DNA of 64,000 bases from Candidatus Daviesbacteria bacterium (GCA_030699125.1 JAUYKM010000011.1:36937-100936); one strand, 5' to 3'. Positions 12,941 to 58,846 are shown, counted from the stretch's first letter. The notes: generated by a model from the letters alone, not told the origin. Translations and numbers: made by a program.

Positions 12941-14176
12941 ATGGTTCAGTTTAAAATTCTACAAAAAAGTGGGCGCTCCAGAGTGGGGAAGTTGACCACA
13001 CCCCATGGAGTAATTGATACACCCAATTTTATTCCGGTAGGGACACAGGCCACTGTTAAGGCGCTCTCAGTACGTGATTTAGAGGAAATTGGGGTGCAGG
13101 TAGTTTTAGGTAATACCTATCATTTAATGCTCAGACCTGGGGCGGATTTGATAGAAAAGTTTGGCGGACTACACAAATTTATGAGTTGGGATAAGCCCAT
13201 CATGACGGATTCCGGAGGATTTCAGGTTTTTTCACTTGGTGTGGGTTTAGAGAGCGGAGAGGGTAAAGTTTTAAAAGAGGTGGGAAATGAGGATTTAGTT
13301 AAAGGACAAAAAGTAAGACTTGCTAAAGTAGAAGAAAAGGGTGTGACTTTTCAATCCCATTTGGATGGCTCTAAACGCTTTTTAGGCCCTAGGGAGTCTA
13401 TAAAAATTCAACACCAGCTGGGAGCAGATTTAATAGTGGCTTTTGATGATCATGAGTCCTCAAAACATACAAAAGAAGAGATGAAAAGATCCTTAGAGCT
13501 GACAGAAAGATGGGCTCTGAGGAGTTTGGATGCGTATCGCCGTTGTCATTCTGAGCCGAAGGCGAAGAATCTCCCGCGTATGCGGGACTCAAACAATAGG
13601 CCATTAATGTATGGTGTTGTTCACGGAGGTACTAATAAAGAGCTCAGAATTAGATCTGCCCGCTTTACAGATGAGAATTTTGAAGCTATAGCCATTGGAG
13701 GGATTTATGGTAAAAGGCGGGATCTTTATCAAATTGTGGATTGGGTGGTGGAAAATATTTCAGAGGAAAAGATACGCCATCTTCTGGGAATAGGGGAGGT
13801 GGAAGATTTATTTAATGGAGTGGAAAAGGGGGTGGATTTGTTTGACTGTGTGGCGCCAATGAGACGCGCCAGAAATGGCTCTTTATATATTAGTCCCAAA
13901 AACAGTGGCAGTGTAAAAAATAGCTTTACCTTAAATATCAGGCTTTCCAAATATGCTCTGGATAAAAAACCAATTGATCATGGATGTCTCTGTTATACTT
14001 GTGGAAACTTTAGTCGGGCTTATCTAAATCATTTATATCGGGCCAATGAGATTTTATTTCATAATTTAGCCACATATCATAATGTCTATTTCATCACTAA
14101 TTTATTAAAGAAAATAAGAGAAGCGATTGGGAATAAGCAATTTGACAAATTAAGGGGAGCATTTTGCCCCCCTTAA
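12941..14176 (+). CDS. tgt: Queuine tRNA-ribosyltransferase (tRNA-guanine transglycosylase)
   Basis: TPHGVIDTPNFIPVGTQATVK, catalytic Asp region, Zn site CLCYTCGNFSRAYLNHL. Contains an in-frame GC-rich hairpin insertion at 13545-13590. Confidence 0.9.
   Translation: MVQFKILQKSGRSRVGKLTTPHGVIDTPNFIPVGTQATVKALSVRDLEEIGVQVVLGNTYHLMLRPGADLIEKFGGLHKFMSWDKPIMTDSGGFQVFSLGVGLESGEGKVLKEVGNEDLVKGQKVRLAKVEEKGVTFQSHLDGSKRFLGPRESIKIQHQLGADLIVAFDDHESSKHTKEEMKRSLELTERWALRSLDAYRRCHSEPKAKNLPRMRDSNNRPLMYGVVHGGTNKELRIRSARFTDENFEAIAIGGIYGKRRDLYQIVDWVVENISEEKIRHLLGIGEVEDLFNGVEKGVDLFDCVAPMRRARNGSLYISPKNSGSVKNSFTLNIRLSKYALDKKPIDHGCLCYTCGNFSRAYLNHLYRANEILFHNLATYHNVYFITNLLKKIREAIGNKQFDKLRGAFCPP
13545..13590. repeat. 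Family-B GC-rich hairpin element (GTCATTCTGAGCCGAAGGCGAAGAATCTCCCGCGTATGCGGGAC) in frame within tgt
   Basis: Homologous to the gyrA copy (GTCATTGCGAGCGAAGCGAAGCAATCT...). Encodes extra CHSEPKAKNLPRMRDS. Confidence 0.55.
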
Positions 14177-14202
14177 AGTTTTCAAAATTCTTTGCAAAGA
14201 AT

Positions 14203-14436
14203 TTACATTGCAGGCGCACCACCTGGTGCTCCACCTGGCTGTTCACCTCCACCTTGTTCCTCACCTGTACCAGCTTCTGGAGCAGGTACTGATGGTGATG
14301 GTTCAGGAGATGGTTCAGGAACTGTTTGATCAGTTGGAGTAGCTGGAGCGTTTGGATCTGCTGTCGGTACTCCTGCATTTGGATCAGTTGGCATTCCTCC
14401 ACCCATCCCGCCTTGATTTGGATCATTTGGATTCAT
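14203..14436 (-). CDS. Small Pro/Gly-rich low-complexity protein
   Basis: Perfect SD AAGGAGGTGA 8 nt upstream of the ATG. GC-rich, PxP repeats. Confidence 0.5.
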   Translation of the reverse strand: MNPNDPNQGGMGGGMPTDPNAGVPTADPNAPATPTDQTVPEPSPEPSPSVPAPEAGTGEEQGGGEQPGGAPGGAPAM

Positions 14437-14513
14437 TAAAATATCACCTCCTTTTTTGCAGTGTACATGAAAATCCCTTGCATGGTCAAGGCCCTAATGA
14501 GTACAATGTGGTT

Positions 14514-15587
14514 ATGCCCAAAAAATCTGCCCGAGGGCCCAAGCCACTCCATGGATGGAGACAAAAACAGTCTCGTACTAAACTAAATAACAAAGTTAAA
14601 CTGGGGTTTATTATCCTGACATTTCTAGCGCTGATACTAATCTCAGGCCAGATTATCAGGATTTTCAATACTGTTTTTATAGACTCCTGGAAATTATCAT
14701 CAGATCACACTAAATCTTTGAACTTTAAGTTTAATACCAATTTTATCTTAAGCTCTGATTCCATCTCCCTAGTCTCTTTTAATATTAAAGAGAAAAAAGT
14801 CACCCAAATTAGGATTCCACCAGAAACTTATCTTCAGGCAGGTCAGTTTGGACGCTGGCAAATAAGATCCTTATATAGCCTGGGGGAATCAACTCAGTCA
14901 GGCCTTGGACAGCTACTTTTAAGAGAGTCGATCTCAACACTATTTGGTGTGCCTATAGACGGATTTATCGGTTGGAATGATGAATCATCTACAAAAGATT
15001 CTGATCAGATCTTATCTGATATGAGACAAAAAATATTCGGTTGTTTGGGTTTATTTGCTCATATCGAGACAAATTTTACTCCTTGGGAACTAAACCGTCT
15101 TTGCTGGGAAATTTCCGGTGTCAGATTTGATAAAGTGGTAAATATTGATCTTGACGACTTTAATCTTTTAGATCAAACTAAACTGCCGGATGGCACCGGG
15201 ATCTTTACAATTGATCCGATTAAAGTTGATAGTGTGATCGATCAATTTGTGGACCCAACCTTAAGAGGTGAGAATATCTCTATTGCCATCTTTAATGCTA
15301 CTCAATATCCAAGTTTGGCCCAACACGCCAGAAGAATGATTGCCAACTTGGGAGGAAACGTTATTTTTATTGGTAATTTTAACAAAGAGCTAAAAACTAG
15401 TTTAGTAATGGGGGATAATTCAGAAACTTACAAATACCTTAAACAAATCTTTGTTTTGTGTGAAAAAACAAAAGATTGTGATAAGATTGAGCCGAAGGAG
15501 TTAGCGGCTTTATTTTCCAGAGCAGAGGTAAACATATTTTTAGGAGAGGATTATTATCAAAAAATTCAGATCCAGCCTAAAAATTAA
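14514..15587 (+). CDS. LytR-CpsA-Psr (LCP) family protein, membrane anchored
   Basis: IRIPPETYLQ (cf. IPRDTYV) and YSLGESTQ...LFGVPIDGFI match the LCP core. Start taken at internal Met to avoid overlap with the upstream convergent gene. Confidence 0.6.
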   Translation: MPKKSARGPKPLHGWRQKQSRTKLNNKVKLGFIILTFLALILISGQIIRIFNTVFIDSWKLSSDHTKSLNFKFNTNFILSSDSISLVSFNIKEKKVTQIRIPPETYLQAGQFGRWQIRSLYSLGESTQSGLGQLLLRESISTLFGVPIDGFIGWNDESSTKDSDQILSDMRQKIFGCLGLFAHIETNFTPWELNRLCWEISGVRFDKVVNIDLDDFNLLDQTKLPDGTGIFTIDPIKVDSVIDQFVDPTLRGENISIAIFNATQYPSLAQHARRMIANLGGNVIFIGNFNKELKTSLVMGDNSETYKYLKQIFVLCEKTKDCDKIEPKELAALFSRAEVNIFLGEDYYQKIQIQPKN

Positions 15588-15595
15588 AATCAATT

Positions 15596-16291: not shown

Positions 16292-16298
16292 TGCCTTT

Positions 16299-18543: not shown

Positions 18544-19344
18544 GTGCACATGAGCGGGCATTCCAAGTGGTCAACTATTAAGAGGGCTAAAGGTGTGGCA
18601 GATATCAAGCGCGGCCAGACCTTTACCAAGGTAGCCAATGCTATCACCATTGCTGCCAAACTGGGTGGATCAGGGGATCCGGAAGCCAACCCCCGTTTAA
18701 GAATGATTATGGATACAGCCCGCGCTGTCAATATGCCCAAGGAAAATATTCAGAGGGCCATAGATAGGGGATTGGGTAAGCTGCCTGGTCAGACTTTGGA
18801 AGAAGTTCTGTATGAAGGTTTTGGTCCAGGTAGTGTAGCCTTTATAGTAGAAGGCGTTACAGATAATAAGTTAAGAACTTTGCAAGAGGTAAAAAATATT
18901 TTCGAAAAAAATGGAGGGTCATTGGCAGGGCAGGGTAGTGTCTTGTATATGTTTGAGAGATGTGGGGAATTAAGGGTAAAGGGGAAAGGGCTCGCTTCGC
19001 GAAGCGAGGGAAGTATGGAAGATGAGATGTTAGAACTTATTGATTTGGGGTCAAAAGATGTAGAGTCCTTCGACTTCGCTCAGGATTTCGCTGACGCTCA
19101 AGAAAAACAAGGATATTTAGTATATGTAGAAGGCTCAGAATTAAATACTATGGGTACAAAAATTACTCAAGCAGGATTTGGGGTAGAGAGTCAGGAATTG
19201 GTCTATAAACCGCTTAATATGGTGGAAATTACTGATAAAGAAACAGCTGAAAAAGTATTGGATTTTGCAGGGAAGTTGGAAGAGTTAGATGATGTGCAAA
19301 AAGTATATGCTAATTTTGATATTCCGGAGGATTTGGTGCAATGA
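18544..19344 (+). CDS. yebC: YebC/PmpR-family transcriptional regulator
   Basis: MSGHSKWSTIKRAKG...; full length. Probable start at 18550. Contains an 18-bp perfect GC palindrome in frame. Confidence 0.85.
   Translation: MHMSGHSKWSTIKRAKGVADIKRGQTFTKVANAITIAAKLGGSGDPEANPRLRMIMDTARAVNMPKENIQRAIDRGLGKLPGQTLEEVLYEGFGPGSVAFIVEGVTDNKLRTLQEVKNIFEKNGGSLAGQGSVLYMFERCGELRVKGKGLASRSEGSMEDEMLELIDLGSKDVESFDFAQDFADAQEKQGYLVYVEGSELNTMGTKITQAGFGVESQELVYKPLNMVEITDKETAEKVLDFAGKLEELDDVQKVYANFDIPEDLVQ
18991..19008. repeat. Perfect palindrome CTCGCTTCGCGAAGCGAG (family-B-related) in frame within yebC
   Basis: Encodes GLASRSEG. The CTTCGC motif is shared with the other GC-rich elements. Confidence 0.55.
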
Positions 19345-20658: not shown

Positions 20659-20699
20659 GGACACAATTTTCAATTTACAATTTTCATTGTTAGAAATAA

Positions 20700-31396: not shown

Positions 31397-31545
31397 AACG
31401 GCCAGGTTAAAATAACGCTATAAAAATTGGGAGATAAAAATGACAAAAATGGCCACTTATAATAAAGAGCAAACAGGGCGGCAAAAATAAATCCCGCTAT
31501 AAAATAAATAATGGCAATTGAGGAGATGATTTTTTCTTTGCTCAT
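31336..31545 (-). CDS. Small membrane protein downstream of gyrA
   Basis: ATGA-coupled to the gyrA stop; two hydrophobic helices. Confidence 0.35.
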
Positions 31546-41001: not shown

Positions 41002-41715
41002 TCATAATTCCTTTGGCATAGATAGCATTAAATATTCCAGAATGGCTCGGATATTAACATTTTGAGCAGCCCACTGCTCAGCTTGCAAAAGTTCCTTCAA
41101 GAAATTCTTATAATCCGTGTTCCCACTTGTCAAGTGGGAAGCTAGATTTTGGTGAAAGTAGCTCACCAAAGAGTGTAAAAATTCTTTCCTGTCTTTTAAT
41201 TTTTCAATATATTCAAATCTTTGCTCAACAGAAATCCTTAAAAGCCTTTCTACGTCCTGAGAATAATCTTTTTCCTGTAAACTGCCGCCTTTGGCGAGCC
41301 TCGCCTCTGGCGGGTAACCTGTAACCTGTAACCTGATTATTTGGCATCTAGACAGAACCGTGGGTAAAAGTTTGGACTCAGAATCTGTGGCCATGATAAA
41401 TATAGCATCTTCGGGCAGTTCCTCCAAAGTTTTTAATAAGGCATTTTGAGCCTCTTCAGTTAGATTGGAAGCCTCTTCTAAAACTACTGCTTTGCCCTTT
41501 GATTGCAAAGGCTTAAAAGAGAGGTGTTTTTTGATTTCTCTGGCTTGTTCTATACCCATTTTTTGAGTTGAATCCAGATAAAGCAGATCAGAATGAGGGT
41601 TGCTCGTACCAGCTTCTTTCAAGATCTCTCCAATCTTTCTATTTATTTTTTCTAAATCAGCTGAAATTAAAAGTTTGGCAATCACATTTTGGATAATACT
41701 TGATGATTGACACAA
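41002..41715 (-). CDS. holB: DNA polymerase III delta' subunit-like protein (short form)
   Basis: IFIMATDSESKLLPTVLSRCQI (SRC sensor motif). Carries an in-frame family-A element and a CCTGTAA x3 tandem. Confidence 0.6.
   Translation of the reverse strand: MCQSSSIIQNVIAKLLISADLEKINRKIGEILKEAGTSNPHSDLLYLDSTQKMGIEQAREIKKHLSFKPLQSKGKAVVLEEASNLTEEAQNALLKTLEELPEDAIFIMATDSESKLLPTVLSRCQIIRLQVTGYPPEARLAKGGSLQEKDYSQDVERLLRISVEQRFEYIEKLKDRKEFLHSLVSYFHQNLASHLTSGNTDYKNFLKELLQAEQWAAQNVNIRAILEYLMLSMPKEL
41119..41143. repeat. Family-A palindromic element in frame in holB (encodes ASHLTSGN)
   Basis: GTTCCCACTTGTCAAGTGGGAAGCT. Confidence 0.6.
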
Positions 41716-41768: not shown

Positions 41769-43493
41769 TTGTTTATGGCTACACAAACTGCCCAAAATGC
41801 CCCAGCCAGTACACTGGAAGAGATTCTGTTTAAACAAGGACTGATCAATCCCGAACAACTTTCTGCCATCAAACTGGAAAGTATTAACTCCGGTCAGGCT
41901 ATTGAAGATATCATAATCCAGCATAATTTATTGCCGGCAGAAAAAATTACTCAAGCCAAAGCTCAGCTTTTGGGTGTGCCTTACATCAAACTGGAAGGTC
42001 AAGCCATTTCCACTGATGTACTAAATCTCATCCCCGAGGCAGTGGCCAGGCGCTACATCCTGATTCCCTTTGAGAAACAAAATGATGTTTTGTTTGTGGC
42101 TATGGCAGATCCTCTAGACATCCAGGTGATCCAGTTTATTGAGAAAAAGAGTGGCATGAGGATTAAGGCTTTCCTGGGTCTGTCACAGGATATCTTAAAG
42201 GCTGTTAATGATCAGTATGCCCAGAATCTAACAGCAGAGGTCACCTCTGCACTCAGAGAAGTAGCTGCCTCTAAGCCTATTGAGGTAGCTGGAGAGGGTC
42301 CTCAGGTCATCAGGGAGGCGCCTGTTTCCAATATCATCGATCAGCTTCTGGAATACGCTATAAAAGTAAGAGCTTCGGATATTCATATTGAGCCTCAAGA
42401 GGACAAAACCAGGGTGCGTTATAGAGTTGATGGTGTTTTGGCGGAGAAAATTATTTTGCCAAGAGGCGTTCATGAGGCCTTAGTTTCCAGAGTGAAAATA
42501 TTGTCTGTTCTAAAAATAGATGAAAAAAGACTGCCTCAAGACGGCAGGTTCACTTTTAAATATGGTAAAAACATCATTGACCTTCGTGTATCAATTATTC
42601 CTACTATTTTTGGGGAGAAAGTGGTCTTGAGACTTTTGCCCAAAACAACTGCTGCACCCACGCTTTTAGAATTGGGTTTAAGAGGAGTATCCCTAAAAAA
42701 TATAGAGATACAGCTTTTAAGGCCTCACGGAATCATCCTCATTTGTGGTCCCACTGGTTCCGGAAAAACTACCACTCTATATTCTCTGCTGACCAAAATT
42801 TCTACCACCAGAGTTAATATTTTAACTATCGAGGATCCGGTGGAGTACCAAATTCCCGGAGTTAATCAGGTTCAGGTAAATCCTACCATCGGGCTTACCT
42901 TTGCCTCGGCTTTGCGCTCTTTTTTAAGGCAGGATCCTAACATCATGATGGTGGGAGAGATTCGTGATACAGAAACAGCAGAATTGGCAGTACAGGCGGC
43001 TCTAACTGGCCACCAGGTATTTTCCACAGTTCATACCAACTCATCTGCAGGAGCTGCTCCCAGACTGCTTGATATGGGGGTTGAGCCGTTTTTGCTCTCT
43101 TCTGCTTTGAATGCAATATTAGGACAACGAGTGGTCAGAAAGATTTGTCAATACTGTAGAACTACTTATAGTCCTCCCCCGGAAATTTTGGATAATATTA
43201 AAACTACCCTCAGTAAATTGACCCCGCAAAATATTGGTACTAACATAAAGTTATATAAGGGTAAAGGCTGTCAGAAGTGCAACAATACCGGTTATTTGGG
43301 TAGGGTGGGTATCTTTGAAGTTTTGGTGGTGAGCTCAAATATGGCGAGATTGATATTGGAGAGGGCTACTTTGCAAGGGATTGAAAAAGCGGCCGTCTCC
43401 GAAGGTATGATTACCATGAAACAGGACGGTTATTTAAAGGTGTTAGAAGGGGTTACTACCATGGAGGAGGTGTTAAGGGTAGCACAGGATTAA
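41769..43493 (+). CDS. pilB: Type IV pilus assembly ATPase PilB (GspE family, with N-terminal T2SE_N domain)
   Basis: Walker A GPTGSGKTTT, Asp/His boxes, tetracysteine CQYC...CQKC. Confidence 0.9.
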   Translation: MFMATQTAQNAPASTLEEILFKQGLINPEQLSAIKLESINSGQAIEDIIIQHNLLPAEKITQAKAQLLGVPYIKLEGQAISTDVLNLIPEAVARRYILIPFEKQNDVLFVAMADPLDIQVIQFIEKKSGMRIKAFLGLSQDILKAVNDQYAQNLTAEVTSALREVAASKPIEVAGEGPQVIREAPVSNIIDQLLEYAIKVRASDIHIEPQEDKTRVRYRVDGVLAEKIILPRGVHEALVSRVKILSVLKIDEKRLPQDGRFTFKYGKNIIDLRVSIIPTIFGEKVVLRLLPKTTAAPTLLELGLRGVSLKNIEIQLLRPHGIILICGPTGSGKTTTLYSLLTKISTTRVNILTIEDPVEYQIPGVNQVQVNPTIGLTFASALRSFLRQDPNIMMVGEIRDTETAELAVQAALTGHQVFSTVHTNSSAGAAPRLLDMGVEPFLLSSALNAILGQRVVRKICQYCRTTYSPPPEILDNIKTTLSKLTPQNIGTNIKLYKGKGCQKCNNTGYLGRVGIFEVLVVSSNMARLILERATLQGIEKAAVSEGMITMKQDGYLKVLEGVTTMEEVLRVAQD

Positions 43494-43497
43494 ATTT

Positions 43498-44550
43498 ATG
43501 ACCATTCATCAATTTTTAGAATTAACCATTGCCAGAGATGCATCTGATTTACATTTAATTGTGGGCTTTGAACCGCAGCTGAGGATTCATGGAGAACTAT
43601 TGCCTGTTCCAGGAACCTCGCCCCTAACAACTGAGGACGTTCAAAACTTGCTTGAGCCTTTAATGAATTTAAATCAGAAAAAAACTTATCTAAATAATTT
43701 GGAATTGGATTTTTCCTACCAGCTGGAGAATAAAGGCAGGTTTAGGATTAATGCCTATTTTCAAAAAGGGGCTCCGGCAGTTGCCCTCAGATTAATCCCC
43801 TTTCATATCAGACCTTTGGATGAGTTGGGATTTCCACAGGTGATTAGCAAGTTGCCGGATTTGGAACAAGGTTTTGTCTTAATTACCGGTCCCACCGGTC
43901 ATGGTAAATCCACTACCCTGGCTGCCTTTATTAATCAAATAAACCACAACCGGGCCGCACATATCATCACTATTGAGGACCCTATTGAATATGTCTACCC
44001 TAAGGGGAAGTCAATTATTTCTCAAAGGGAGATGTATAGGGATTCTCGCGATTGGCCGTATGCCTTAAGGGCCGCATTAAGGGAAGATCCTAATGTGGTG
44101 TTGATTGGCGAGATGAGGGATTTGGAAACCATTGCATCTGCCATGACCATTGCCGAAACCGGACATCTGGTCTTTGCCACACTGCATACCAACTCGGCCG
44201 CCCAGTCAGTTGATAGAATTGTGGATGTTTTCCCAGAGAATCAGCAGCCGCAAATAAGATTGCAGCTGGCTGCGACCCTTGAGGCAATTATCTCTTTAAG
44301 ACTCGTGCCAACTATTAATCCGGGTAGAATTTTGGCGGTGGAGATTTTGTTTGCCTCAGCAGCAGTCAGAAACATCATCAGGGAAGGCAAGACGCACCTG
44401 ATTGATAATCTGATTCAAACATCAGGCGAGTTAGGTATGACTACCTTGGAAAACTCCCTGGCATCATTAGTTAAATCAGGCAAAATTTCCCGGGAGGTAG
44501 CTTTAAGGCATGCACTTAGACCAGAGCTTCTAAGCAAGCTGATAAGATAG
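43498..44550 (+). CDS. pilT: Twitching-motility (retraction) ATPase PilT
   Basis: GPTGHGKSTT, AIRNIIREGK PilT signature. Confidence 0.9.
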   Translation: MTIHQFLELTIARDASDLHLIVGFEPQLRIHGELLPVPGTSPLTTEDVQNLLEPLMNLNQKKTYLNNLELDFSYQLENKGRFRINAYFQKGAPAVALRLIPFHIRPLDELGFPQVISKLPDLEQGFVLITGPTGHGKSTTLAAFINQINHNRAAHIITIEDPIEYVYPKGKSIISQREMYRDSRDWPYALRAALREDPNVVLIGEMRDLETIASAMTIAETGHLVFATLHTNSAAQSVDRIVDVFPENQQPQIRLQLAATLEAIISLRLVPTINPGRILAVEILFASAAVRNIIREGKTHLIDNLIQTSGELGMTTLENSLASLVKSGKISREVALRHALRPELLSKLIR

Positions 44551-44554
44551 AATA

Positions 44555-45757
44555 ATGGCTATTTTCATTTACAAAGGTAAGGATAAACAAAGTGTTGAGA
44601 GGTCCGGTGAAATTGAGTCTTCTGATCCCAGAAGCGCAGCTTCAATATTAAGAAAACGGGGTCTGATTGTGGTATCTGTTAAGGTTAAAGAAATTCCTTT
44701 TGGTTCAGGTATTGAGAGCATTTTCAACAAAGTATCATTTTCCGATTTGGTCAGATTTACCAGACAACTTGCTACCATGATTGGGGCAGGTTTGGTTTTA
44801 TCAGAGGCTTTGGATATCTTAGATGAACAGGAGGAAAATAAAAAACTTAAAAAAGCCCTGGGAGAGATCTCGGATGCGGTCAAAGGAGGGATGACTCTGG
44901 CCCAATCATTTTCCAGACATCCGGAGATTTTCCCTGCCATCTACGTAAACTTAGTCAAAAGCGGTGAGGCTTCCGGTAAATTAGACCAGGTGCTTTTAAA
45001 GATGGCAGATAATCTGGAAAAAGAAAGGGAATTTAGGGCAAGAATTAAAGGAGCCCTTATTTATCCAATGGTGGTAATTATTATGATGGTGGCGGTGATA
45101 GTATTAATGATTACTTTTGTCATCCCGCGACTCACTGCTCTTTATACTGATGCCCAAATCGATCTGCCGCTGCCCACCAAAATTCTAATTGCGGTGTCTT
45201 CCTTTTTTACCACTTTTTGGTGGGCCTTACTGATTGCTTTAGCAGCAGGTATTTATGGACTCAGACGCTGGGGAAAAACCCAGGAGGGAAAATTGGTTTT
45301 AGACAAGCTGCTCTTAAAAATGCCTATTGTAGGTAAAATTATCACTTCAGTTACATTAACTAATTTTACCAGAACCTTTGGCTTATTGGTTTCAGCAGGC
45401 ATTCCCCTACTTGAGGCCATCAATATTGTTTCCGATATTACCGATAACTCTGTTTTTAAAAGGTCCTTAAAAGAATCATATATTGGTGTGGAAAGGGGTT
45501 TGCCTTTTTCCACTCTTCTCCCCTCCCCGCTTTTCCCCAGAATTGTAGGTCAGATGGTTAAAGTCGGCGAAGAAACAGGAAAAGTGGATGAGATATTTTT
45601 TAAGCTGTCAGATTATTTTGAGTCAGAGGCAGACCATATGGTGAAAAACTTGACTGTTGCCATTGAGCCAATCATTCTGATCATTTTGGGAATTGGAGTA
45701 GGGTTTTTAGTCATATCAATCATTTTGCCAATATATAAGTTGACAACGTCATTTTAA
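44555..45757 (+). CDS. pilC: Type IV pilus platform protein PilC (GspF family)
   Basis: Two GspF repeats, 3 TM. Confidence 0.9.
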   Translation: MAIFIYKGKDKQSVERSGEIESSDPRSAASILRKRGLIVVSVKVKEIPFGSGIESIFNKVSFSDLVRFTRQLATMIGAGLVLSEALDILDEQEENKKLKKALGEISDAVKGGMTLAQSFSRHPEIFPAIYVNLVKSGEASGKLDQVLLKMADNLEKEREFRARIKGALIYPMVVIIMMVAVIVLMITFVIPRLTALYTDAQIDLPLPTKILIAVSSFFTTFWWALLIALAAGIYGLRRWGKTQEGKLVLDKLLLKMPIVGKIITSVTLTNFTRTFGLLVSAGIPLLEAINIVSDITDNSVFKRSLKESYIGVERGLPFSTLLPSPLFPRIVGQMVKVGEETGKVDEIFFKLSDYFESEADHMVKNLTVAIEPIILIILGIGVGFLVISIILPIYKLTTSF

Positions 45758-45828
45758 TTTATTTGGCTACTTGACTAACTATATAATTTTATGAATACAA
45801 TGGATTAGATAGAAAATCCTGAAGGGAG

Positions 45829-46389
45829 GTGAAGTTTTTGAAGAAATCTGCTCAACCATTTAAAGGTTTTACTTTGGTAGAGCTTTTGGTGGTTATTGCT
45901 ATTATTGCTATTTTGGCAGCAGTGGTGGTACTTATTATTAATCCTTTGGAGTTGACCAGAAGAGGAAGGGATGCAGCTAGACTGCAAGACTTGGCTCACC
46001 TTCAACAAGCCATTAACGTGGCCGTACAGGAAGCTACTCAGTCAGGTTCAGACATTCTTTGTAGCGGATCCAGTTATCCTTGCACAGGTGCTTCTCATAC
46101 AGGAACCAGGGATTCTGATGGAACCGGTTGGGTTTTAGTTAATCTAGGATCACAACAAGCTGTATCAGTTCCTACTTTGCCTGCAGATCCGACCAACAGT
46201 ACTGCTTTTCATTATACGTACTGCGCGGATGATGCACCAGGCACCGATGCTTGGGAAATCGACACGGCTTTGGAATCTGACCAACAGTCAGATAAGATGA
46301 CCACAGATGGTGGGAATGAGGATACCAGGTATGAGGTTGGTTCTAATTTGACCATTATTGCCGCCTCAGGTGGAAGTTGCGCATATTAA
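45829..46389 (+). CDS. Type IV (major?) pilin, class III leader
   Basis: MKFLKKSAQPFKG|FTLVELLVVIAIIAILAAVV; Cys pairs in the C-terminal domain. Confidence 0.8.
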   Translation: MKFLKKSAQPFKGFTLVELLVVIAIIAILAAVVVLIINPLELTRRGRDAARLQDLAHLQQAINVAVQEATQSGSDILCSGSSYPCTGASHTGTRDSDGTGWVLVNLGSQQAVSVPTLPADPTNSTAFHYTYCADDAPGTDAWEIDTALESDQQSDKMTTDGGNEDTRYEVGSNLTIIAASGGSCAY

Positions 46390-47305
46390 AGTGGTAGTAA
46401 TAGGTTTTTTATGGGGAACAGTCCTTGGTAGTTTTGTCAAGGCACTGGCCGATCGCAGCTTAACCAAAAGGACTTTTTTGGGAAGGTCATACTGCCCTAA
46501 TTGTAAGAAGGTTTTACGCTGGTATGACCTTCTTCCTATCCTGTCCCATCTTCTTTTAAAAGGTAGATGCAGGTATTGTCATAGGAAGATTGGCGTGGAG
46601 TATGTGGTAGTAGAGGTAGTGATGGGAATTCTGGTGGGCTATCTGTTTTTCCAGACCTTCAATAATTTTCAATCCTTCGACTCACTCAATTCGCTCAGGA
46701 CAAGTTTTCAATTTCTAAATTTATTATTTGAGCTTGTATATAAGGTTTTCTTTATCATCGTTTTGGCAATTCTTTTCCTGACAGACTTGAAAAAAATGAT
46801 AATTCCAGACAGGATTGTTATCCCTTCTATTATTATTGCTTTTTTGGCTTTGTTGGTCATAACCGGCTATAAAATTGGTTACCTTTATTATTATCTTTCA
46901 GCGCATCCCGTTGGTCAGTATCTACTTCCTCCCCACAGCCTGTATTTTCAGGAACATGCTTTAGTTCATTTACAATCATCTGCTTTGGCAGTAGTTTCCG
47001 GTTTGGTTTTGGCATCATTTTTTCTGCTCCTGATTATTATTACCAAAGGTAAGGGTATGGGAGGAGGAGATGTTAAACTGGCCCTCTTCATGGGCTTGGG
47101 ATTGGGTTTTCCTAATATAATAGTAGCAACCATGTTATCTTTTATAATAGGAGCCGTTTTTTCAGTGGGACTAATTATTTTTGGCAAAAAAGGTTTTAGG
47201 TCAGTTATTCCTTTCGGACCATTTCTGGTCATCGGATCTCTCCTGGCCTTATTTTGGGGAGAGGAAATTATTGATTGGTATTTTCAATTATCCCTACTCT
47301 TTTGA
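46358..47305 (+). CDS. pilD: Prepilin peptidase PilD (A24)
   Basis: CPNC...CRYC zinc motif, GGGDVKL catalytic Asp motif, polytopic. Confidence 0.85.
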   Translation: MPPQVEVAHIKVVVIGFLWGTVLGSFVKALADRSLTKRTFLGRSYCPNCKKVLRWYDLLPILSHLLLKGRCRYCHRKIGVEYVVVEVVMGILVGYLFFQTFNNFQSFDSLNSLRTSFQFLNLLFELVYKVFFIIVLAILFLTDLKKMIIPDRIVIPSIIIAFLALLVITGYKIGYLYYYLSAHPVGQYLLPPHSLYFQEHALVHLQSSALAVVSGLVLASFFLLLIIITKGKGMGGGDVKLALFMGLGLGFPNIIVATMLSFIIGAVFSVGLIIFGKKGFRSVIPFGPFLVIGSLLALFWGEEIIDWYFQLSLLF

Positions 47306-47359
47306 ATTAACTCTTGACAAATAAGTTACCATATATCAATAATTAAATATAGATTATAA

Positions 47360-47917
47360 ATGAAAAAGTTACTGCCCAATTTTATTAGACCTCACGGTTT
47401 CACCCTAATTGAGTTAATGGTGGTGGTGGCAATTATTGCTATATTGGCTGTTATTGGATTTGCTATTTTCCAAAATGCTCAAAAAAACGCCAGAGATGGG
47501 ATAAGAAGAGGTGAAATTAATAATTTATCCAAATCCATTGAGTCCTCCAGAGATCCAACGCTAACAACAGGATATTATATATATAATGCTGCTAATTTTA
47601 CTGCGGATTATCCCACCCATACACCAAAGGATCCCCGCAAAGATGCGGCTCGTCCTAAGTATTGCGTATCTACATCTAATTCAGCTACTAATCCATTTAC
47701 CGTTAATCCGACTATATGGTCAGATCCAACTGTTTGTCCAAGCGGCGGGCCTGCTGGCTCTACAGCTTATGCAGCTATTGTAAGCGAGAGTGGGGTTTAT
47801 CAGACCATAGGTAACGCCTTGGCAGGTGCCGGAGGAGCAAGGCACTGGGAAATTTGTGCCTTATTGGAGGTACCTACTGGTGCCAATAGCATATTCTGTA
47901 TTAGTAATTCTCAATAA
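47360..47917 (+). CDS. Prepilin-type protein
   Basis: PHG|FTLIELMVVVAIIAILA. Confidence 0.75.
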   Translation: MKKLLPNFIRPHGFTLIELMVVVAIIAILAVIGFAIFQNAQKNARDGIRRGEINNLSKSIESSRDPTLTTGYYIYNAANFTADYPTHTPKDPRKDAARPKYCVSTSNSATNPFTVNPTIWSDPTVCPSGGPAGSTAYAAIVSESGVYQTIGNALAGAGGARHWEICALLEVPTGANSIFCISNSQ

Positions 47918-47928
47918 CGTCCTATATC

Positions 47929-48495
47929 TTGACACTAGAGTCAAACTCTTTCATACTAATATTAGTGAATATTTTACTGCCCCTGAGCGAGACTTCGACG
48001 GTGAGCTCAGTCGAACCGCGAAGTGAGTCGAAGGGTTTTACCCTGATAGAACTGTTGGTGGTGATCTCCATAATTTCCATTTTGGCTACCATCGGTATTG
48101 CTTCTTACCAAGGAGCCCAGAAAAACGCCCGGGATGCCAGACGTAGAAATGATGTAGATGTAATTGCCAAATCATTGGAGGTAAACAAGGCTCAAAATAC
48201 CCTTTATTACCCTATAATTGATCCCACCTGGTTTGAATCAGGTGCTGTACCCATAGATACCACTACTGCCAAATATTGCATTCTGTATAGAGAAAGTGGA
48301 ACTATTGCCAAACCCAATACCTGGCTGACGACTGCTTCCTGTCCTCCGGCGGTAGAGGGAGATACAAATGTGGCGGCTATTCCTGCAACCGGTAATGTGC
48401 CGGTTGTTGTTCCCGGCTATGCTGTCTTTAAAATTTGCGCCAGACTGGAACAAGGTACCCAACCTAATATTTTCTGCCGCAGCAATATCCAATGA
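47929..48495 (+). CDS. Prepilin-type protein with atypically long leader containing a GC-rich hairpin sequence
   Basis: ...SESKG|FTLIELLVVISII. The 5' region carries GAGCGAGACTTCGACGGTGAGCTCAGTCGAACCGCGAAGTGAGTCGAAG. True start uncertain (in-frame GTG at ~47989). Confidence 0.65.
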   Translation: MTLESNSFILILVNILLPLSETSTVSSVEPRSESKGFTLIELLVVISIISILATIGIASYQGAQKNARDARRRNDVDVIAKSLEVNKAQNTLYYPIIDPTWFESGAVPIDTTTAKYCILYRESGTIAKPNTWLTTASCPPAVEGDTNVAAIPATGNVPVVVPGYAVFKICARLEQGTQPNIFCRSNIQ

Positions 48496-49031
48496 AAGTT
48501 AGTAGCGGTTTTACTTTAATAAGGACCTGCTTCGCTTCGCGATATGAGAAATTGTATCACTCACTCGCAGAACCCTGTAAGGGTTTTACCCTTATAGAAC
48601 TTCTCATAGCCGTATCCATTATTGCTCTGCTTATGACGATTGGCGCTATCTCTTATATGGGGTTTTTAAGAACAACCAGAGATACCTCCAGACAAACTGA
48701 TTTAAAAACTATCCAGTCTGTTTTGGAGCAATACCATGCTGATTTACACTTTTACCCCACTGCCCAATTTACTTTTGCCGGTCAAAGGTTTACCAATGCT
48801 TCAGGCAGAGCCGGAAACCCCCAGGTAACTAAAACTTATTTAAACAACACACCTAAAGAACAATGGACTCAAACTGCACCTTATTTATATGTGCCACTTC
48901 CCGCAGGATGCGGTGAAGTTGCTCCGCTTTGTTCCAACTACTGTTTATATGCTCGTTTAGAAGGAACAAGCCCTGGATTAGGCAGCTGTGCTACTCAGAC
49001 AGTTTATAACTATGCCGTCAGCCAACCATGA
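48492..49031 (+). CDS. Prepilin-type protein whose leader is interrupted in frame by a 51-nt MITE-like element plus ~19-bp duplication
   Basis: MKVSSGFTLI-[RTCFASRYEKLYHSLAEPCK]-GFTLIELLIAVSII. Removing the element plus one repeat restores a canonical prepilin. Confidence 0.7.
   Translation: MKVSSGFTLIRTCFASRYEKLYHSLAEPCKGFTLIELLIAVSIIALLMTIGAISYMGFLRTTRDTSRQTDLKTIQSVLEQYHADLHFYPTAQFTFAGQRFTNASGRAGNPQVTKTYLNNTPKEQWTQTAPYLYVPLPAGCGEVAPLCSNYCLYARLEGTSPGLGSCATQTVYNYAVSQP
48523..48573. repeat. Family-B MITE-like element GGACCTGCTTCGCTTCGCGATATGAG...CTCGCAGAACC with imperfect TIRs (GGACCTGC/GCAGAACC), flanked by direct repeats GGTTTTACYYTAATAGAA
   Basis: ~75% identical inverted copy at 58792-58846. 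Confidence 0.65.
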
Positions 49032-49567
49032 AAAATTTTGGTTATACTTTAATAGAACTAATGGTAGGAGTGTCAATTCTAGCTATTTTTTCCGTAGTGG
49101 CTCTTTTGCAATTCCGCACCTTTGGTGAAGATAAAATTCTTACCTCAGCTGCAAATGATGTTCAATCTTTTATCCGGACAGCACAGACCAATGCTTCAAC
49201 AGGAGTACTTTGTACCGGCAATGGTGGGGCATCCTGGAGTGTGGTTATAAATACCAACCAGATAAATATGGACCATCTATGTAGCTATGGAGACCCGCCT
49301 GTAACATTTACTCCCCCCAATAATCTAAAGCTGCCTCCCAATATTATAATAAACTCCATGGTTTCCCCTTTTTGTCAGTCTGTTTATCCCCAGATGGGTG
49401 GAGCTTTAACTTTAATCTATGCTCCGATAACCGGAGGAGTAACATTTGAAACACAAGAACAATGCATTAAAGACGGAGTGAATCTGACTATTACTTTGGT
49501 AAACACCAAAACAAGTACTTCTAAAGATGTTATTATAGATAAAGGAGGTGCGGTGGATGTTAAATAG
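49028..49567 (+). CDS. Pseudopilin/minor pilin
   Basis: MKNFG|YTLIELMVGVSILAIF. Confidence 0.7.
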   Translation: MKNFGYTLIELMVGVSILAIFSVVALLQFRTFGEDKILTSAANDVQSFIRTAQTNASTGVLCTGNGGASWSVVINTNQINMDHLCSYGDPPVTFTPPNNLKLPPNIIINSMVSPFCQSVYPQMGGALTLIYAPITGGVTFETQEQCIKDGVNLTITLVNTKTSTSKDVIIDKGGAVDVK

Positions 49568-50075
49568 TAGAGGGCAGACTTTAATTGAGCTTTTGGTGGT
49601 GGTGACTGTGGCGATTATCGTCATCACAGCCTTAGTTTTTGCCACTATCACCTCCCTCCGCAATGCCGAGCTTTCCAAAAATCAGATTCAAGCTTCCAAG
49701 TATGCTCAAGAAGGTATAGAAAAGGTCAGATCAATCAGGAATAGAGATGGTGAGCTCATCTTTACTGACGGCGGAGGTCCTATTGATAAATTTTCCGGTC
49801 TCTGGAATAAACAGCTGAACAGCTCCTGTGTAGATTATTGTTATTTTAAGCTTTACAGACAGGATAGGGATGCAGATGGGAATCCTGATGATTACCTAAA
49901 CTCCGAGACAATCAGCTCTTTTGAGGATTTAACTGGTGAGTTTCAAAGACAGGTTCAAATGATAGATAATTCTACTACATATAGTTTGGAAAAAACTATC
50001 AATGTGATAGTTAAATGGAGAGATTTTGCCGGAGAGCATGAGTCGAAACTGACAACTGTTTTAGGGAAAATATGA
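49548..50075 (+). CDS. Pseudopilin/minor pilin
   Basis: NSRG|QTLIELLVVVTVAIIV. Confidence 0.7.
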   Translation: MRWMLNSRGQTLIELLVVVTVAIIVITALVFATITSLRNAELSKNQIQASKYAQEGIEKVRSIRNRDGELIFTDGGGPIDKFSGLWNKQLNSSCVDYCYFKLYRQDRDADGNPDDYLNSETISSFEDLTGEFQRQVQMIDNSTTYSLEKTINVIVKWRDFAGEHESKLTTVLGKI

Positions 50076-50623
50076 GAAAAGGGTTCACTGTGGTAGAGAT
50101 TTTGGTAGTGGTGGGAGTTTTGACTGTGACGAGTGTAATTTTTGTGGAGATTTTTTTCAGATCTTTAAGAGGAGGCAATCAGGCTCAAACTTTAGGAGTG
50201 ATTAAACAGAATGGCCAGCAAGCCATTGAGCTTATGGATAAAAATATCAGACTGGCAGATAATGTAGTTTGTATTGGTAGTATTGGCAGTGGCGCTGATA
50301 ATACTTTGGTGATTGAAAAGGAAAAAAATTACACCAGATTCAGATTTATTTCCCCCACTTCCAGTAAGAATGGTTATATCTCGCAGGATAATGTAGATAA
50401 CTGCACTGCTCCCTCTCCTGCCGGCAGTTTGATTATCTTGACAAATACTAATCCCGTAGGTGGTGTATCAGTATTATCCGGAAGTTTTCAAAAGGATACA
50501 CAAGCCGGTTTTAAGGATGTTATTCTGATTAATTTTACGATTGGCCCTGGCGTAGGTGTGCCTAAGAGTTTAACCGACAATATTGACCCACTGGAATTTA
50601 CCACCAGTGTGGAGTTAAGATAA
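50072..50623 (+). CDS. Pseudopilin/minor pilin
   Basis: MRKG|FTVVEILVVVGVLTV. Confidence 0.7.
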   Translation: MRKGFTVVEILVVVGVLTVTSVIFVEIFFRSLRGGNQAQTLGVIKQNGQQAIELMDKNIRLADNVVCIGSIGSGADNTLVIEKEKNYTRFRFISPTSSKNGYISQDNVDNCTAPSPAGSLIILTNTNPVGGVSVLSGSFQKDTQAGFKDVILINFTIGPGVGVPKSLTDNIDPLEFTTSVELR

Positions 50624-54247: not shown

Positions 54248-54281
54248 TTTACAATTTACAATTTACAATTTACAATGAAGA
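54246..54281. repeat. Tandem AATTTACAA x4 immediately upstream of pilM
   Basis: Direct reading. Related CAATTTWCAATTT arrays at 10861-10905 and 20661-20690. Confidence 0.6.
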
Positions 54282-54290
54282 TACTGTCCT

Positions 54291-55328: not shown

Positions 55329-55331
55329 AAA

Positions 55332-55886: not shown

Positions 55887-55895
55887 TATATTTAT

Positions 55896-57273: not shown

Positions 57274-57348
57274 AATAACAAGTAACTAGTACAGTAAAGG
57301 TAACAAGTTATTTCTACTTGTCACTTGTTACTTCTGTACTTGTTACCC
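57274..57348. repeat. Iterated GTAACAAGT / ACTTGTTAC inverted repeats spanning the KH-gene stop codon to the trmD start (potential hairpin/attenuator or operator)
   Basis: Five copies in 75 bp; two copies encode VTS...VTS at the KH protein C-terminus. Confidence 0.5.
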
Positions 57349-57583
57349 CAGTCGGTTCTGCCAGAGTCAAATTCACTCTGACGTTTTCCGTAATTGCCCT
57401 CACTGTTAAAAGTCTTCTGATTGATCTGATGGTTTGTCCCCCTTTACCAATGATCAGGCCCATATCTTGAGGGTCCACTGTTAGTGTAAGATTGATTGAG
57501 CCATCCTCTTTTTGTTCATCAATTGTGATAGCATCAGGTTTAGAAACTAGGTTTTTAACAATAAACTCAAGCAGTTCCTTCAT
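57314..57583 (-). CDS. KH-domain RNA-binding protein (YlqC/UPF0109-like)
   Basis: LIIGKGGQTIRSIRRLL KH GXXG motif; sits between rpsP and trmD as in the rpsP-ylqC-rimM-trmD operon. Confidence 0.75.
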   Translation of the reverse strand: MKELLEFIVKNLVSKPDAITIDEQKEDGSINLTLTVDPQDMGLIIGKGGQTIRSIRRLLTVRAITENVRVNLTLAEPTGVTSTEVTSDK

Positions 57584-58034
57584 TTTTTATTTCCTCTTTC
57601 GGTGCTTCGGCCTCCTTCTGATCCACTGATTCAGTGGCTTCTGATTCTACCTCTTTTGCAGGGGCTTCTTTTGTTTTTTGTTCATCTGCGGGTTGTTCTG
57701 ATGAGGTTGGTTCAGCTGTTTCTGTCTTTTCTGCTATCTGAGGACTGATAGCTGCTGGCTGTTCTTCTTTCTTTTCCTTCTTAGGCTTTCTGGGTAGCCT
57801 TTGGGGGGCTTTGCCAATAATTCTTAAAAATCCAGTACTCATCTGGGCTCCCTGCTTTGTCCAATGATCAATTCTATCTTGCTTAAGCTTGATATCTTTT
57901 GGTTCGGTTAAAGGATTATAAGTTCCCAAAAGTTCCAAATAAGCACCGGTTCTTTTGGCCCGTTCATCAACCACTACCACCCGATAGAATGGCCTCTTCT
58001 TTGCCCCTATTCTCATTAAACGGATTTTTAACAT
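57567..58034 (-). CDS. rpsP: 30S ribosomal protein S16 with Ala/Glu/Lys-rich C-terminal extension
   Basis: MLKIRLMRIGAKKRPFYRVVVVD... Confidence 0.9.
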   Translation of the reverse strand: MLKIRLMRIGAKKRPFYRVVVVDERAKRTGAYLELLGTYNPLTEPKDIKLKQDRIDHWTKQGAQMSTGFLRIIGKAPQRLPRKPKKEKKEEQPAAISPQIAEKTETAEPTSSEQPADEQKTKEAPAKEVESEATESVDQKEAEAPKEEIKNEGTA

Positions 58035-58052
58035 GGAGGTAAGTATAAAGGA

Positions 58053-58466
58053 TTAGTGGATATCTTTCAATAGCTGAACGAACTTGAATTTTGTAGCTCC
58101 AGCAAACTTTTCATCAGCCGTGATCAACCTTGCCTTATATTTCTTAGCAACAACTGCATATAACATATCATAAACTGAAGTATGATACTTTTTAGCTAGG
58201 CGCGATGCATCTTTTAGATCTTTTTCCACCGGATGATAAATATGTAAGTCTATCTGATAAAGTCTGGTTAAGGCGTTGGTTATTTTCCAAAGGCTAATAA
58301 TACCTTTTGTCACTAAGGTATTGGCAACCTCATAAAAAAGAAATTCAGGAACAAGAGTTTCCTGGGTTTGTAATATGTGGTTTCGAAAGATTTTAGAAGC
58401 GAGGAAGTGACCCTCTTCATGAGGTAGAAACAGTTTGTTAGCAACCGAAGCATCTATGACGGTCAT
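58053..58466 (-). CDS. vapC: PIN-domain ribonuclease toxin (VapC-like)
   Basis: MTVIDASVANKLF N-terminal Asp plus downstream acidic residues in a PIN arrangement. Confidence 0.7.
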   Translation of the reverse strand: MTVIDASVANKLFLPHEEGHFLASKIFRNHILQTQETLVPEFLFYEVANTLVTKGIISLWKITNALTRLYQIDLHIYHPVEKDLKDASRLAKKYHTSVYDMLYAVVAKKYKARLITADEKFAGATKFKFVQLLKDIH

Positions 58467-58736
58467 TTAGGAATACCTGATCTCGCGTAGGGCTTTCACA
58501 GAGTCAAAATCCTTACCTACCTCTTTGGAAATTTCTCTGCCAAGTTGTTCTAGCTCTTTCATGAATTTATCTACGTCTTTGATTTTCCTGTTTTTAACTT
58601 CCTTTTCTTTGTCGATGTTTTTAGAAGTAGCTTCACGTACTATTTTTGCCAGACTTTTTCTTTCTTTGAAAGCCTTAAGCTTGAGCTTCTTATATTGATC
58701 CTCAGGAAACCTGATGTTGGTGGATACCCAGTTCAC
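58467..58736 (-). CDS. Ribbon-helix-helix (CopG/VapB-like) antitoxin
   Basis: Abuts vapC. STNIRFPEDQYKKLKLKAFKERKSLAKIVREA is an RHH pattern. Confidence 0.55.
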   Translation of the reverse strand: MNWVSTNIRFPEDQYKKLKLKAFKERKSLAKIVREATSKNIDKEKEVKNRKIKDVDKFMKELEQLGREISKEVGKDFDSVKALREIRYS

Positions 58737-58791
58737 GTTTTTAATTCCTCCTTAAAAATATAATAGCCTTAGAATTAAAAAGGCAAGGTTC

Positions 58792-58846
58792 TGCAAGCAC
58801 GAGCTAAAATATCTCATAGCGAAGTGCGAAGCAGGTCCTTATAGTA
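58792..58846. repeat. Family-B MITE-like element, intergenic inverted copy of the 48523-48573 element
   Basis: GGTTCTGCAAGCACGAGC...GCGAAGTGCGAAGCAGGTCC; ~75% identity to the reverse complement of the pilin-leader copy. Confidence 0.6.

Follow-up and report, generated by a model that had tools for sequence, protein, structure and literature searches.

Probable Ssn-linked, CGTC/TGTC-tagged REP units within the gyrA and tgt genes of a Candidatus Daviesbacteria bacterium

Described repeat systems and the tagged units of the window

REP sequences with a CGTC tag have been described by Di Nocera, De Gregorio and Rocco (2013, BMC Genomics 14:522; PMC3733652), and the family was defined by an unpaired CGTC tag at the 5' end, for which TGTC or CCTC is allowed, by a stem whose first two pairs are A-T, and by a short unpaired 3' tail with the consensus CCA. 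The family is also known as Ssn-related motifs, and as NTS or dRS3 in Neisseria, and the Rickettsia palindromic elements (RPE) RPE-4 and RPE-6 are CGTC-4 and CGTC-1 units (PMC3733652). The DNA analyzed here, referred to as the window, was a stretch of 64,000 nucleotides from a Candidatus Daviesbacteria bacterium. Its units share with the published ones the CGTC/TGTC tag, a stem starting with AT, a C or CCA tail, the mostly head-to-head dimeric arrangement including dimers of unlike units, the distribution over many phyla, and the presence of in-gene copies, often in genes for DNA replication and RNA modification. The stems were 5 bp and interrupted by a variable mini-hairpin, whereas those in PMC3733652 are 8-9 bp with a loop of 4-5 nt; other loop lengths are given there for Bradyrhizobium units, and bulged classes were possibly missed. 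In addition, the CPR copies end in CT instead of CCA, Patescibacteria are absent from the phyla given in PMC3733652, and the peptide type of the gyrA insert is absent from its in-gene examples.

The small GIY-YIG nucleases Ssn, which cut single-stranded DNA, are cognate to the motif (Chenal et al. 2025, Nat Commun 16:2388; PMC11893778), and both the bracketing of the ssn gene by motif units and the single-strand cleavage activity have been published. The units studied here agree with these motifs in the order of HGTC tag, hairpin and C, and an ssn-like gene between inverted units occurs in six further genera besides a Daviesbacteria relative. In the relative (L255; GCA_016176405.1), the 91-aa GIY-YIG gene at 6163-6438, showing 46% identity to the Neisseria gonorrhoeae locus, is bracketed by TGTCATTCTGAG...AGAATC upstream and TGTCATCCTGA...AGGATC downstream, which are subtypes found in the window. 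Homologs in Planktothrix, Azospirillum, Neisseria, Novosphingobium, Spirosoma and Sinorhizobium are bracketed likewise, each by the host's own subtype. No ssn homolog was detected within the 64-kb window. The published SRM string (HGTCWY-N0-2-YYVSBRH-N0-5-WNVSBRG-N0-2-RNCYNB) matched no unit of the window, and its sole match there (3672-3703) had no hairpin and was probably due to chance. It also failed to match the units on either side of the Daviesbacteria and S. meliloti ssn homologs, and the Planktothrix units. Neither CPR nor in-gene copies are mentioned in PMC11893778.

REPINs and RAYTs (Bertels and Rainey 2011; PMC3116915) are similar in that an inverted REP pair folds into a long hairpin, the enzyme gene is present once and lies between repeats of its own, and non-autonomous copies are proposed; they have GTAG and a Y1 HUH transposase in place of CGTC and a GIY-YIG nuclease. 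RPE are likewise palindromic repeats that interrupt housekeeping genes in frame and thereby encode additional loop residues, but differ in sequence type and host. QueA of Rickettsia conorii carries an RPE, and the unit found here is carried by Tgt, which acts just before QueA in the queuosine pathway. Seven translations had no NCBIfam or Pfam match at E <= 10, although these libraries may no longer hold RPE models.

An earlier reading of the sequence, the original prediction, had assigned five GC-rich sequences of the window (in gyrA, tgt and yebC, a pilin leader, and an inverted pair) to one family of MITE-like elements. The sequences in gyrA and tgt and that at 3420 are probably CGTC/TGTC-tagged REP units linked to Ssn, the two in-gene copies surviving selection as translated loop inserts. 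Membership comprises two of the five flagged sequences (gyrA and tgt) and an unflagged one (3420), while the remaining three cannot be shown to belong. The units consist of an unpaired (C/T)GTC tag, an AT-initiated stem, an internal loop with a variable mini-hairpin, and a C directly after the stem. Stems in the window are only 5 bp long (ATTGC/GCAAT, ATTCT/AGAAT or ATCCT/AGGAT), the first type being written CGTCATTGCGAG...GCAATC and the second TGTCATTCTGAG...AGAATC. The tag is CGTC in the minus-strand unit of gyrA and TGTC in its plus-strand unit and in the tgt and 3420 units, and the C following the stem is present in all four, each reading CT. With a generic unit grammar, four units were counted in the 64-kb window against 0.48 expected (at most two in 200 simulations), arranged as one head-to-head dimer and two single units (table), and two of the four had no significant fold when taken alone. 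The 3420-3455 unit contains the inner hairpin TCCCGCC-AAA-GGCGGGA (DNA fold -11.3 kcal/mol, z -3.7) and resembles the tgt unit (z 3.9). This unit was not on the list of the original prediction.

Table. Coordinates of the probable REP units and of the other GC-rich features in the window
Feature	Position	Strand	Sequence or location
Probable REP unit	3420-3455	minus	TGTC tag, ATCCT/AGGAT subtype; intergenic, just upstream of efp (3466)
Probable single REP unit	13544-13571	plus	TGTCATTCTGAGCCGAAGGCGAAGAATC; TGTC tag, ATTCT/AGAAT subtype; in frame in tgt, peptide CHSEPKAKNL
Small hairpin	13572-13587	plus	TCCCGC-GTAT-GCGGGA; adjoins the tgt unit, unrelated to it, peptide PRMRDS
Perfect 18-nt palindrome	18991-19008	plus	CTCGCTTCGCGAAGCGAG; adds six codons (LASRSE) to a variable yebC loop
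Probable head-to-head REP dimer	33407-33498	minus	92-nt nested palindrome; in frame in gyrA (31542-34106, minus)
Unit 1 of the gyrA dimer	33472-33498	minus	CGTC-ATTGC-GAG-CGAAGC-GAA-GCAAT-C
Unit 2 of the gyrA dimer	33407-33456	plus	TGTC-ATTGC-GAG-(28-nt side hairpin)-GAA-GCAAT-C
51-nt GC-rich in-frame insert	47983-48033	plus	Leader of pilin gene 47929/47965-48495
15-nt direct repeat	48507-48521 and 48582-48596	plus	Encodes GFTLI; brackets copy A
Copy A of the 59-nt repeat	48519-48577	plus	In an in-frame insertion of 60 nt (48522-48581); pilin leader, gene start at 48492
Copy B of the 59-nt repeat	58784-58842	minus	5' untranslated region of the vapB/PIN-vapC pair

Many further copies exist in other genomes. 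The unit pattern was found in at least 120 genome contigs outside the window and also in at least 120 IMG/VR viral contigs, and the matches listed included Alphaproteobacteria, Gammaproteobacteria, Bacteroidota, Chloroflexi, Cyanobacteria, Planctomycetes, Ignavibacteriota and Patescibacteria. Among the matches listed, 213 units at 120 genome loci had C (76%) or T (21%) as the base preceding GTC, and CCA as the tail in 66%. As these features were not part of the search pattern, and the tag and the tail define the family in PMC3733652, the frequencies support the family identity. Single units were as frequent as dimers, seven units were located within 11 kb of the relative L134, and the copies in other phyla were mostly intergenic. 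With the covariance models of Rfam 15, neither the window nor six loci had a match reaching the gathering threshold; the gyrA element had none at E <= 10, and around the 48519/58784 pair and the pilin-leader insert the only matches were at E > 1, a chance level.

The copies in gyrA and tgt

The nested palindrome that had been predicted at 33411-33507 was indeed present and in frame in gyrA between the motifs HNL and GPDFPTGG, with coordinates slightly offset from those of the table. It adds approximately 37 residues to GyrA, and the insert peptide ends in ...PRNDSVFQS. The two inverted units, separated by a 13-nt loop, together make up one long hairpin, and they were recognized by nhmmer with E-values of 6e-10 and 1e-7 using a profile HMM built from 202 units. 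Its computed fold energy was -46.9 kcal/mol for RNA (z -7.0) and -28 to -31 kcal/mol for DNA (z -8.4). The inner "nested" hairpin is a variable side arm normal for the family, not a second element.

The gyrA element lies opposite a 78-nt gap in the closest ortholog (L001; 92% amino acid identity in GyrA), and the solved GyrA structure 4DDQ has no counterpart for the 37 extra residues. Among GyrA homologs with readable motifs, 32 had a basal loop of 26 residues and 12 had the VIASEAKQS...PRND peptide. These 12 carriers were scattered over a neighbour-joining tree, in which repeated gain is not separable from gain followed by loss because the tree has no support values. In the relative L134, the same dimer occurs in both murD and gyrA with 93% identity, while orthologous gyrA dimers from different genomes are only about 68% identical, which argues for copying within a genome.

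The tgt unit aligned with the arm of the gyrA element (z 4.8, p 0.004 against shuffles). The predicted homology and the use of another frame (1, against 0 in gyrA) held. The tgt copy is a single unit of a sister subtype and not a palindrome. The unit and the adjoining small hairpin belong to one lineage-specific insertion, and the unit is absent from the closest ortholog (L002; 85% amino acid identity in Tgt). Another relative (L256) has a full head-to-head dimer of the ATTCT/AGAAT subtype at the insertion site.

Other GC-rich insertions and competing explanations

The yebC palindrome was also present as predicted and is a real six-codon insertion, LASRSE being found in only two of the 119 orthologs listed. 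The 31-nt stretch around it is identical in one ortholog, in which yebC is otherwise 74% identical at the nucleotide level. It may be related to the REP family, but membership is unproven, as the palindrome has neither tag nor tail, was missed by the profile HMM, and is weakly similar to the gyrA element (z 2.5). The inverted repeat proposed at 48523-48573 and 58792-58846 proved to be real, extending over 59 nt with 76% identity (z 19) and representing the longest inverted pair in the window. Copy B follows a promoter-like site (58892-58865) and precedes the start codon at 58736, and its RNA fold was -18.7 kcal/mol (z -2.8). The two GFTLI-encoding repeats around copy A are identical at 12 of 15 positions, with all differences synonymous. 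Copy A and the gyrA element have only the 13-nt core TGCTTCGCTTCGC in common (z 6.3). As for the pilin leader, where a related sequence had been placed at 47980-48030, the GC-rich 51-nt insert is present, standing where a paralogous leader (47360) has an NFIRPH segment; the relation was not confirmed, since the insert had no significant similarity to the other flagged sequences (p 0.03-0.64), and no significant fold was obtained. Both the 59-nt pair and the insert in the pilin leader are probably GC-rich insertions of their own, distinct from the tagged REPs.

The grouping of all five sequences into one family was thus not upheld. The yebC palindrome, the 59-nt pair and the pilin insert could be decayed or minimal relatives of the tagged REPs, for which the core TGCTTCGCTTCGC common to copy A and the gyrA arm, the similarity of the yebC palindrome to copy A (z 5.5), and the position of all three as GC-rich in-frame insertions in variable regions can be adduced. 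We regard this as rather unlikely: none of them has the tag, the AT-initiated stem or the tail, the profile HMM missed them even at E <= 100, the pilin-leader insert matches nothing, and the core is a low-complexity pentamer repeat in sequences that had been chosen for CTTCGC. As to the gyrA and tgt copies, the extra residues might instead be functional, selected, lineage-specific loops with incidental palindromy. Orthologous sites do share a frame (three gyrA genes are read in frame 0, two tgt genes in frame 1), and the inserts fall in loops of variable length across the group. Such an origin is nevertheless highly improbable, as a single DNA family uses frame 0, 1 or 2 depending on the gene, lies chiefly between genes in other phyla, and is missing from the closest GyrA and Tgt orthologs, and unrelated hairpin sequences fill the loop in other lineages. 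The use of three frames indicates that insertion is primary and not peptide function, as originally claimed; the intact reading frames suggest that the inserts are translated as extra residues.

The label "MITE-like" did not hold for these REP-type units. Classical MITEs, that is, IS deletion derivatives moved by a DDE transposase and having terminal inverted repeats and target-site duplications, would fit the palindromic ends, the multiple copies, the GC content unlike that of the host, and the 15-nt direct repeat around copy A. However, neither such terminal inverted repeats nor target-site duplications occur at gyrA and tgt, the duplications being absent also at 3420 and from 131 copies of other genomes; the surroundings of the elements show no enrichment of any protein family, single units are as common as dimers, and the tag and tail that define the family mark the elements as REP-type units. 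The label was rejected also because the enzyme linked to the units is a GIY-YIG single-strand nuclease and not a transposase (PMC3733652, PMC11893778), and a MITE origin is scarcely credible. Mobilization as REPINs by a RAYT (REP-associated Y1 tyrosine transposase) appears quite improbable as well, although L130 and L134, the two relatives examined whose gyrA has a CGTC dimer, possess a Y1_Tnp gene 0.6-1.4 kb downstream of gyrA, and three relatives lacking CGTC units have none at this position. The hairpins on either side of the Y1_Tnp gene are of another kind (CACCT-NNN-AGGTG) and not CGTC units, neither the window nor loci L004-L123 contain such a gene, no CGTC-flanked Y1 transposase was found in PMC3733652, and the gene bracketed by the units encodes a GIY-YIG protein.

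A possible route of insertion and its consequences

By analogy with the Neisseria work, an Ssn-family single-domain GIY-YIG nuclease would bind the folded unit in single-stranded DNA and would cut a few nucleotides upstream of the tag. A nuclease gene between two inverted units would be like a minimal insertion sequence, and as the nuclease gene itself is bracketed in this way, the dispersed units would be its non-autonomous copies. Copies whose length is a multiple of three and that enter a permissive surface loop would survive selection and become extra loop residues, since the unit is stop-free in five of six reading frames.

In Daviesbacteria, the loops of GyrA, Tgt and YebC hold different hairpin repeats depending on the lineage, or stand empty. 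It is conceivable, if doubtful, that Ssn/CGTC hairpins and other palindromes bounded by GTC...GAC replace each other at the same codons of these three proteins through site-directed turnover. An existing hairpin would then act as a landing or gene-conversion site, with single-strand cleavage next to it followed by copying from another copy in the genome.

The new aspects are the host of the probable CGTC/TGTC-tagged REP units, a CPR bacterium, the interrupted-stem units missed by the published search motif, and the repeated occupation of identical protein loops by different hairpin repeats across Daviesbacteria. If it takes place, site-directed turnover would lead to hypervariable loops in essential proteins. 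The motifs may also mark incoming single-stranded DNA, as in Neisseria, with uptake via the type IV pilus system encoded in the window, in which case they would modulate natural transformation in a CPR bacterium.

Tagged hairpin units in gyrA, tgt and upstream of efp

At the protein level, GyrA, Tgt and YebC encoded in the window match a Candidatus Daviesbacteria metagenome-assembled genome at 100% identity. The palindrome in gyrA had originally been predicted to lie in frame and to lengthen the protein, and this was borne out. On the mRNA strand, the first arm of the element reads C-CGTC-ATTGC-GAG-CGAAGC-GAA-GCAAT-CT, followed by a 13-nt loop and the second arm AG-ATTGC-TTC-TCCCCCAGTACCGTAATGGTACAGGGTC-CTC-GCAAT-GACA. 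The calculated fold is a three-way hairpin, with an energy of -46.9 kcal/mol (z -7.0) for RNA and between -28 and -31 kcal/mol (z -8.4) for DNA. The element, judged from the intact reading frame, would add ~37 residues to GyrA, which have no counterpart in the solved structure of Bacillus subtilis GyrA (4DDQ); the alignment covers query residues 7-201 and resumes at 239-302. The AlphaFold model of residues 1-530 was poor (mean pLDDT 58.5, below 30 in the insert) and is of little weight here. The comparison with relatives proposed in the original prediction showed the insert to be missing in the closest ortholog (L001, 92% identity), with a 78-nt gap opposite the element. A basal loop of 26 residues is present in 32 of the GyrA homologs whose motifs could be read; the remaining ones have inserts at this very position, between 3 and 54 residues long.

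The tgt sequence, TGTC-ATTCT-GAG-CCGAAGG-CGA-AGAAT-C, was confirmed as a homologous copy by its alignment to the full gyrA arm (z 4.8, p 0.004). The 5-bp stem shows compensating changes from ATTGC/GCAAT in gyrA to ATTCT/AGAAT in tgt. The element is missing from an 85%-identical Tgt ortholog, and the loop carrying it is variable in length across the group. In the tgt gene of another relative (L256), the same site is occupied in the same frame by a complete head-to-head dimer that pairs one ATTCT with one ATCCT unit. A scan of the window (G+C ~40%) with a generic unit grammar, namely [CT]GTC, AT plus three bases, the complement of those, and C, detected four units versus 0.48 expected. Besides both units of gyrA and the one in tgt, these included a unit upstream of efp that was new relative to the original list.

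Five GyrA homologs of 1263-1346 aa from Daviesbacteria and Microgenomates (P0053, P0066, P0075, P0096 and P0106) contain the extra domains PF14528 and PF14890, which we take to be intein or homing-endonuclease domains. If this reading is true, both inteins and hairpin repeats invade gyrA in these groups.

Coordinates of genes and repeats in the window
Feature	Position	Strand	Remark
gyrA	31542-34106	minus	gene identity confirmed
gyrA dimer	33407-33498	minus	tagged units
tgt	12941-14176		gene identity confirmed
tgt unit	13544-13571	plus	tagged unit
Unit upstream of efp	3420-3455	minus	tagged unit
yebC	18544-19344		gene identity confirmed
yebC palindrome	18991-19008
Type IV pilus cluster	41769-50623		PilB, PilT, PilC, prepilin peptidase, at least five pilins
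Pilin-leader insert	47983-48033
59-nt repeat, copy A	48519-48577
59-nt repeat, copy B	58784-58842		inverted
Second hairpin family	2955-3002, 35354-35401, 38284-38331, 41101-41148		four copies
vapB-like and PIN-domain (vapC) genes	58053-58736		upstream of rpsP
Direct repeats	57987-58047, 58899-58959		61 nt, 89% identical
GC-rich hairpin with heptamers	41273-41326
ORF	41002-41715
AT-rich repeat	10873-10899, 20663-20689, 54251-54277

Other palindromes and repeats in the window

Three further sequences had been assigned to the same family as the gyrA element. The yebC palindrome is a real insertion, which two orthologs have and the closest ortholog does not; in the alignment with one of the two (74% identical overall), the 31-nt stretch around the palindrome was the longest identical run. 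It may be related to the gyrA/tgt family; it has neither tag nor tail, and a profile HMM from 202 units detected only the two gyrA arms. The 59-nt pair is a genuine repeat (z 19) and probably falls outside the family of the gyrA element, the only part common with the gyrA arm being a low-complexity 13-mer. Copy A lengthens the leader of a pilin gene by 60 nt, in frame, and has a 15-nt repeat encoding GFTLI on both sides; copy B is located ahead of a vapBC pair, within its 5' untranslated region. The pilin-leader insert, standing in place of six codons of the paralogous leader, gave no match and no significant fold; its interpretation as a tandem repeat was not supported. The search of metagenome contigs with PilC detected one contig of 99% identity that ended before the pilins, along with distant loci, and an exact-protein look-up for the pilin cluster returned the same strain only.

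Several other repeats were observed in the window. A different hairpin family, of approximately AGCTTCCCAC-loop-GTGGGAAGCT, includes two copies 93% complementary to each other. The vapB-like and vapC genes lie between direct repeats that include the rpsP promoter-proximal region and the first 16 codons of rpsP, as if a cassette had been inserted here with duplication of its target. By coordinates, an ORF contains a GC-rich hairpin, in which CCGCC...GGCGG enclose GCGAGCCTCGC, and after it three TAACCTG heptamers in tandem. The AT-rich repeat ACAATTT(T/A)CAATTTACAATTT directly follows a stop codon in two of its three copies.

Relation to CGTC-tagged REPs and Ssn nucleases

The family pattern GTCATTGCGAG-N4-20-AAGCAATC-N5-35-GATTGCTT was found in at least 120 contigs of species-representative genomes, the matches listed including Bradyrhizobium and other Alphaproteobacteria, Gammaproteobacteria, Bacteroidota, Chloroflexi, Nostoc, Planctomycetes, Ignavibacteriota and Patescibacteria. 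It was also present in at least 120 IMG/VR viral contigs, with a mean G+C of 63% among the matches listed. The 131 elements have a common architecture of tag, outer stem, variable mini-hairpin, inner stem and variable loop, followed by the mirror image. Positions outside the search pattern are conserved as well: GTC was preceded by C in 76% of the units and by T in 21%, and the stem was followed by a CCA tail in 66%. In tag, AT start of the stem and tail, this grammar follows the definition of the CGTC-tagged REPs (Di Nocera et al. 2013, PMC3733652). That study reported head-to-head dimers and copies inside genes, identified RPE-4 and RPE-6 of Rickettsia as CGTC units, and found no dedicated transposase; the type in the window differs from its in-gene peptides (VIPAKAGI, SFPRKRES, DSRFRGND and others). 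Nothing relevant was detected in Rfam by gathering and permissive searches, in NCBIfam and Pfam with the translated elements, or in the literature with the element sequence and peptides. The genes within 400 nt of the 131 elements showed no enrichment of any protein family, as expected for non-autonomous copies. The target-site duplications that the original prediction had proposed to look for were not found at the tagged units.

In one Daviesbacteria locus (L255), a 91-aa GIY-YIG gene lies between inverted TGTCATTCTGAG... and TGTCATCCTGA... units, and its homologs in six other genera (Planktothrix, Azospirillum, Neisseria, Novosphingobium, Spirosoma and Sinorhizobium) have the same flanking arrangement, made up in every case of the unit type of the host itself. 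Chenal et al. 2025 (PMC11893778) had already described the association of this kind of gene with repeats. According to that work, GIY-YIG proteins of the Ssn family bind the Neisseria unit CGTCATTCCCGCGMAVGCGGGAATCYRG solely as single-stranded DNA, cleave a few nucleotides upstream of it, require three bases before the stem and a C after it, and modulate natural transformation; the repeat-ssnA-repeat order was likened to an insertion sequence. CPR bacteria and in-gene copies are nowhere mentioned there. The published SRM string matches no unit in the window and also fails on the units flanking the Daviesbacteria and S. meliloti GIY-YIG genes. A GIY-YIG search of the viral contigs with a single protein query returned no relatives.

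On plasmid AZO_p3 of Azospirillum lipoferum (L258, 2989-3282), an Ssn-type GIY-YIG gene with flanking CGTC dimers lies between sufB and sufC and looks like a selfish insertion into the operon. A RAYT-like Y1_Tnp gene (HUH motif NHFHF) with CACCT-NNN-AGGTG hairpins on both sides was observed just 3' of gyrA in two Daviesbacteria loci (L130, 13195-13869; L134, 10122-10805), and none was present in the window.

Evidence for copying and turnover of the loop inserts

The 11-kb locus L134 contains seven units. Its murD and gyrA carry the same dimer of unlike units, in frame in both and 93% identical, versus only ~68% identity for orthologous gyrA dimers between genomes; murD also has a single unit read in the third frame. 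In a GyrA neighbour-joining tree built after removing the insert, without support values, the 12 carriers of the window's insert type were split among at least seven positions, with sequences that have an empty loop or another insert in between. Three further lineages (L131-L133) have hairpin palindromes of other kinds as inserts, with the same boundaries (AAA..GTC at the left end, GAC..TTT at the right), and peptide signatures of these other types were found again in the Tgt and YebC loops. The L133 insert (10595-10711) begins with four tandem CAGTCAT heptamers and encloses another small GC-rich hairpin, indicating that GyrA loop inserts can be composite.

Odd-looking sequences in a CPR genome are now assigned to an understood family, for which both the recognition grammar and the cognate nuclease have been characterised. 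The CGTC/Ssn family is extended to Patescibacteria, to copies within gyrA, tgt and murD, and to an interrupted-stem unit type, which was missed by the published search motif and is among the most widespread (at least 120 contigs each in the genome and viral collections). For annotation, this accounts for core proteins of CPR bacteria that vary in length or contain segments of seemingly low complexity. The patchy, fast-changing occupancy of the same loops provides a natural system for asking how these repeats spread.
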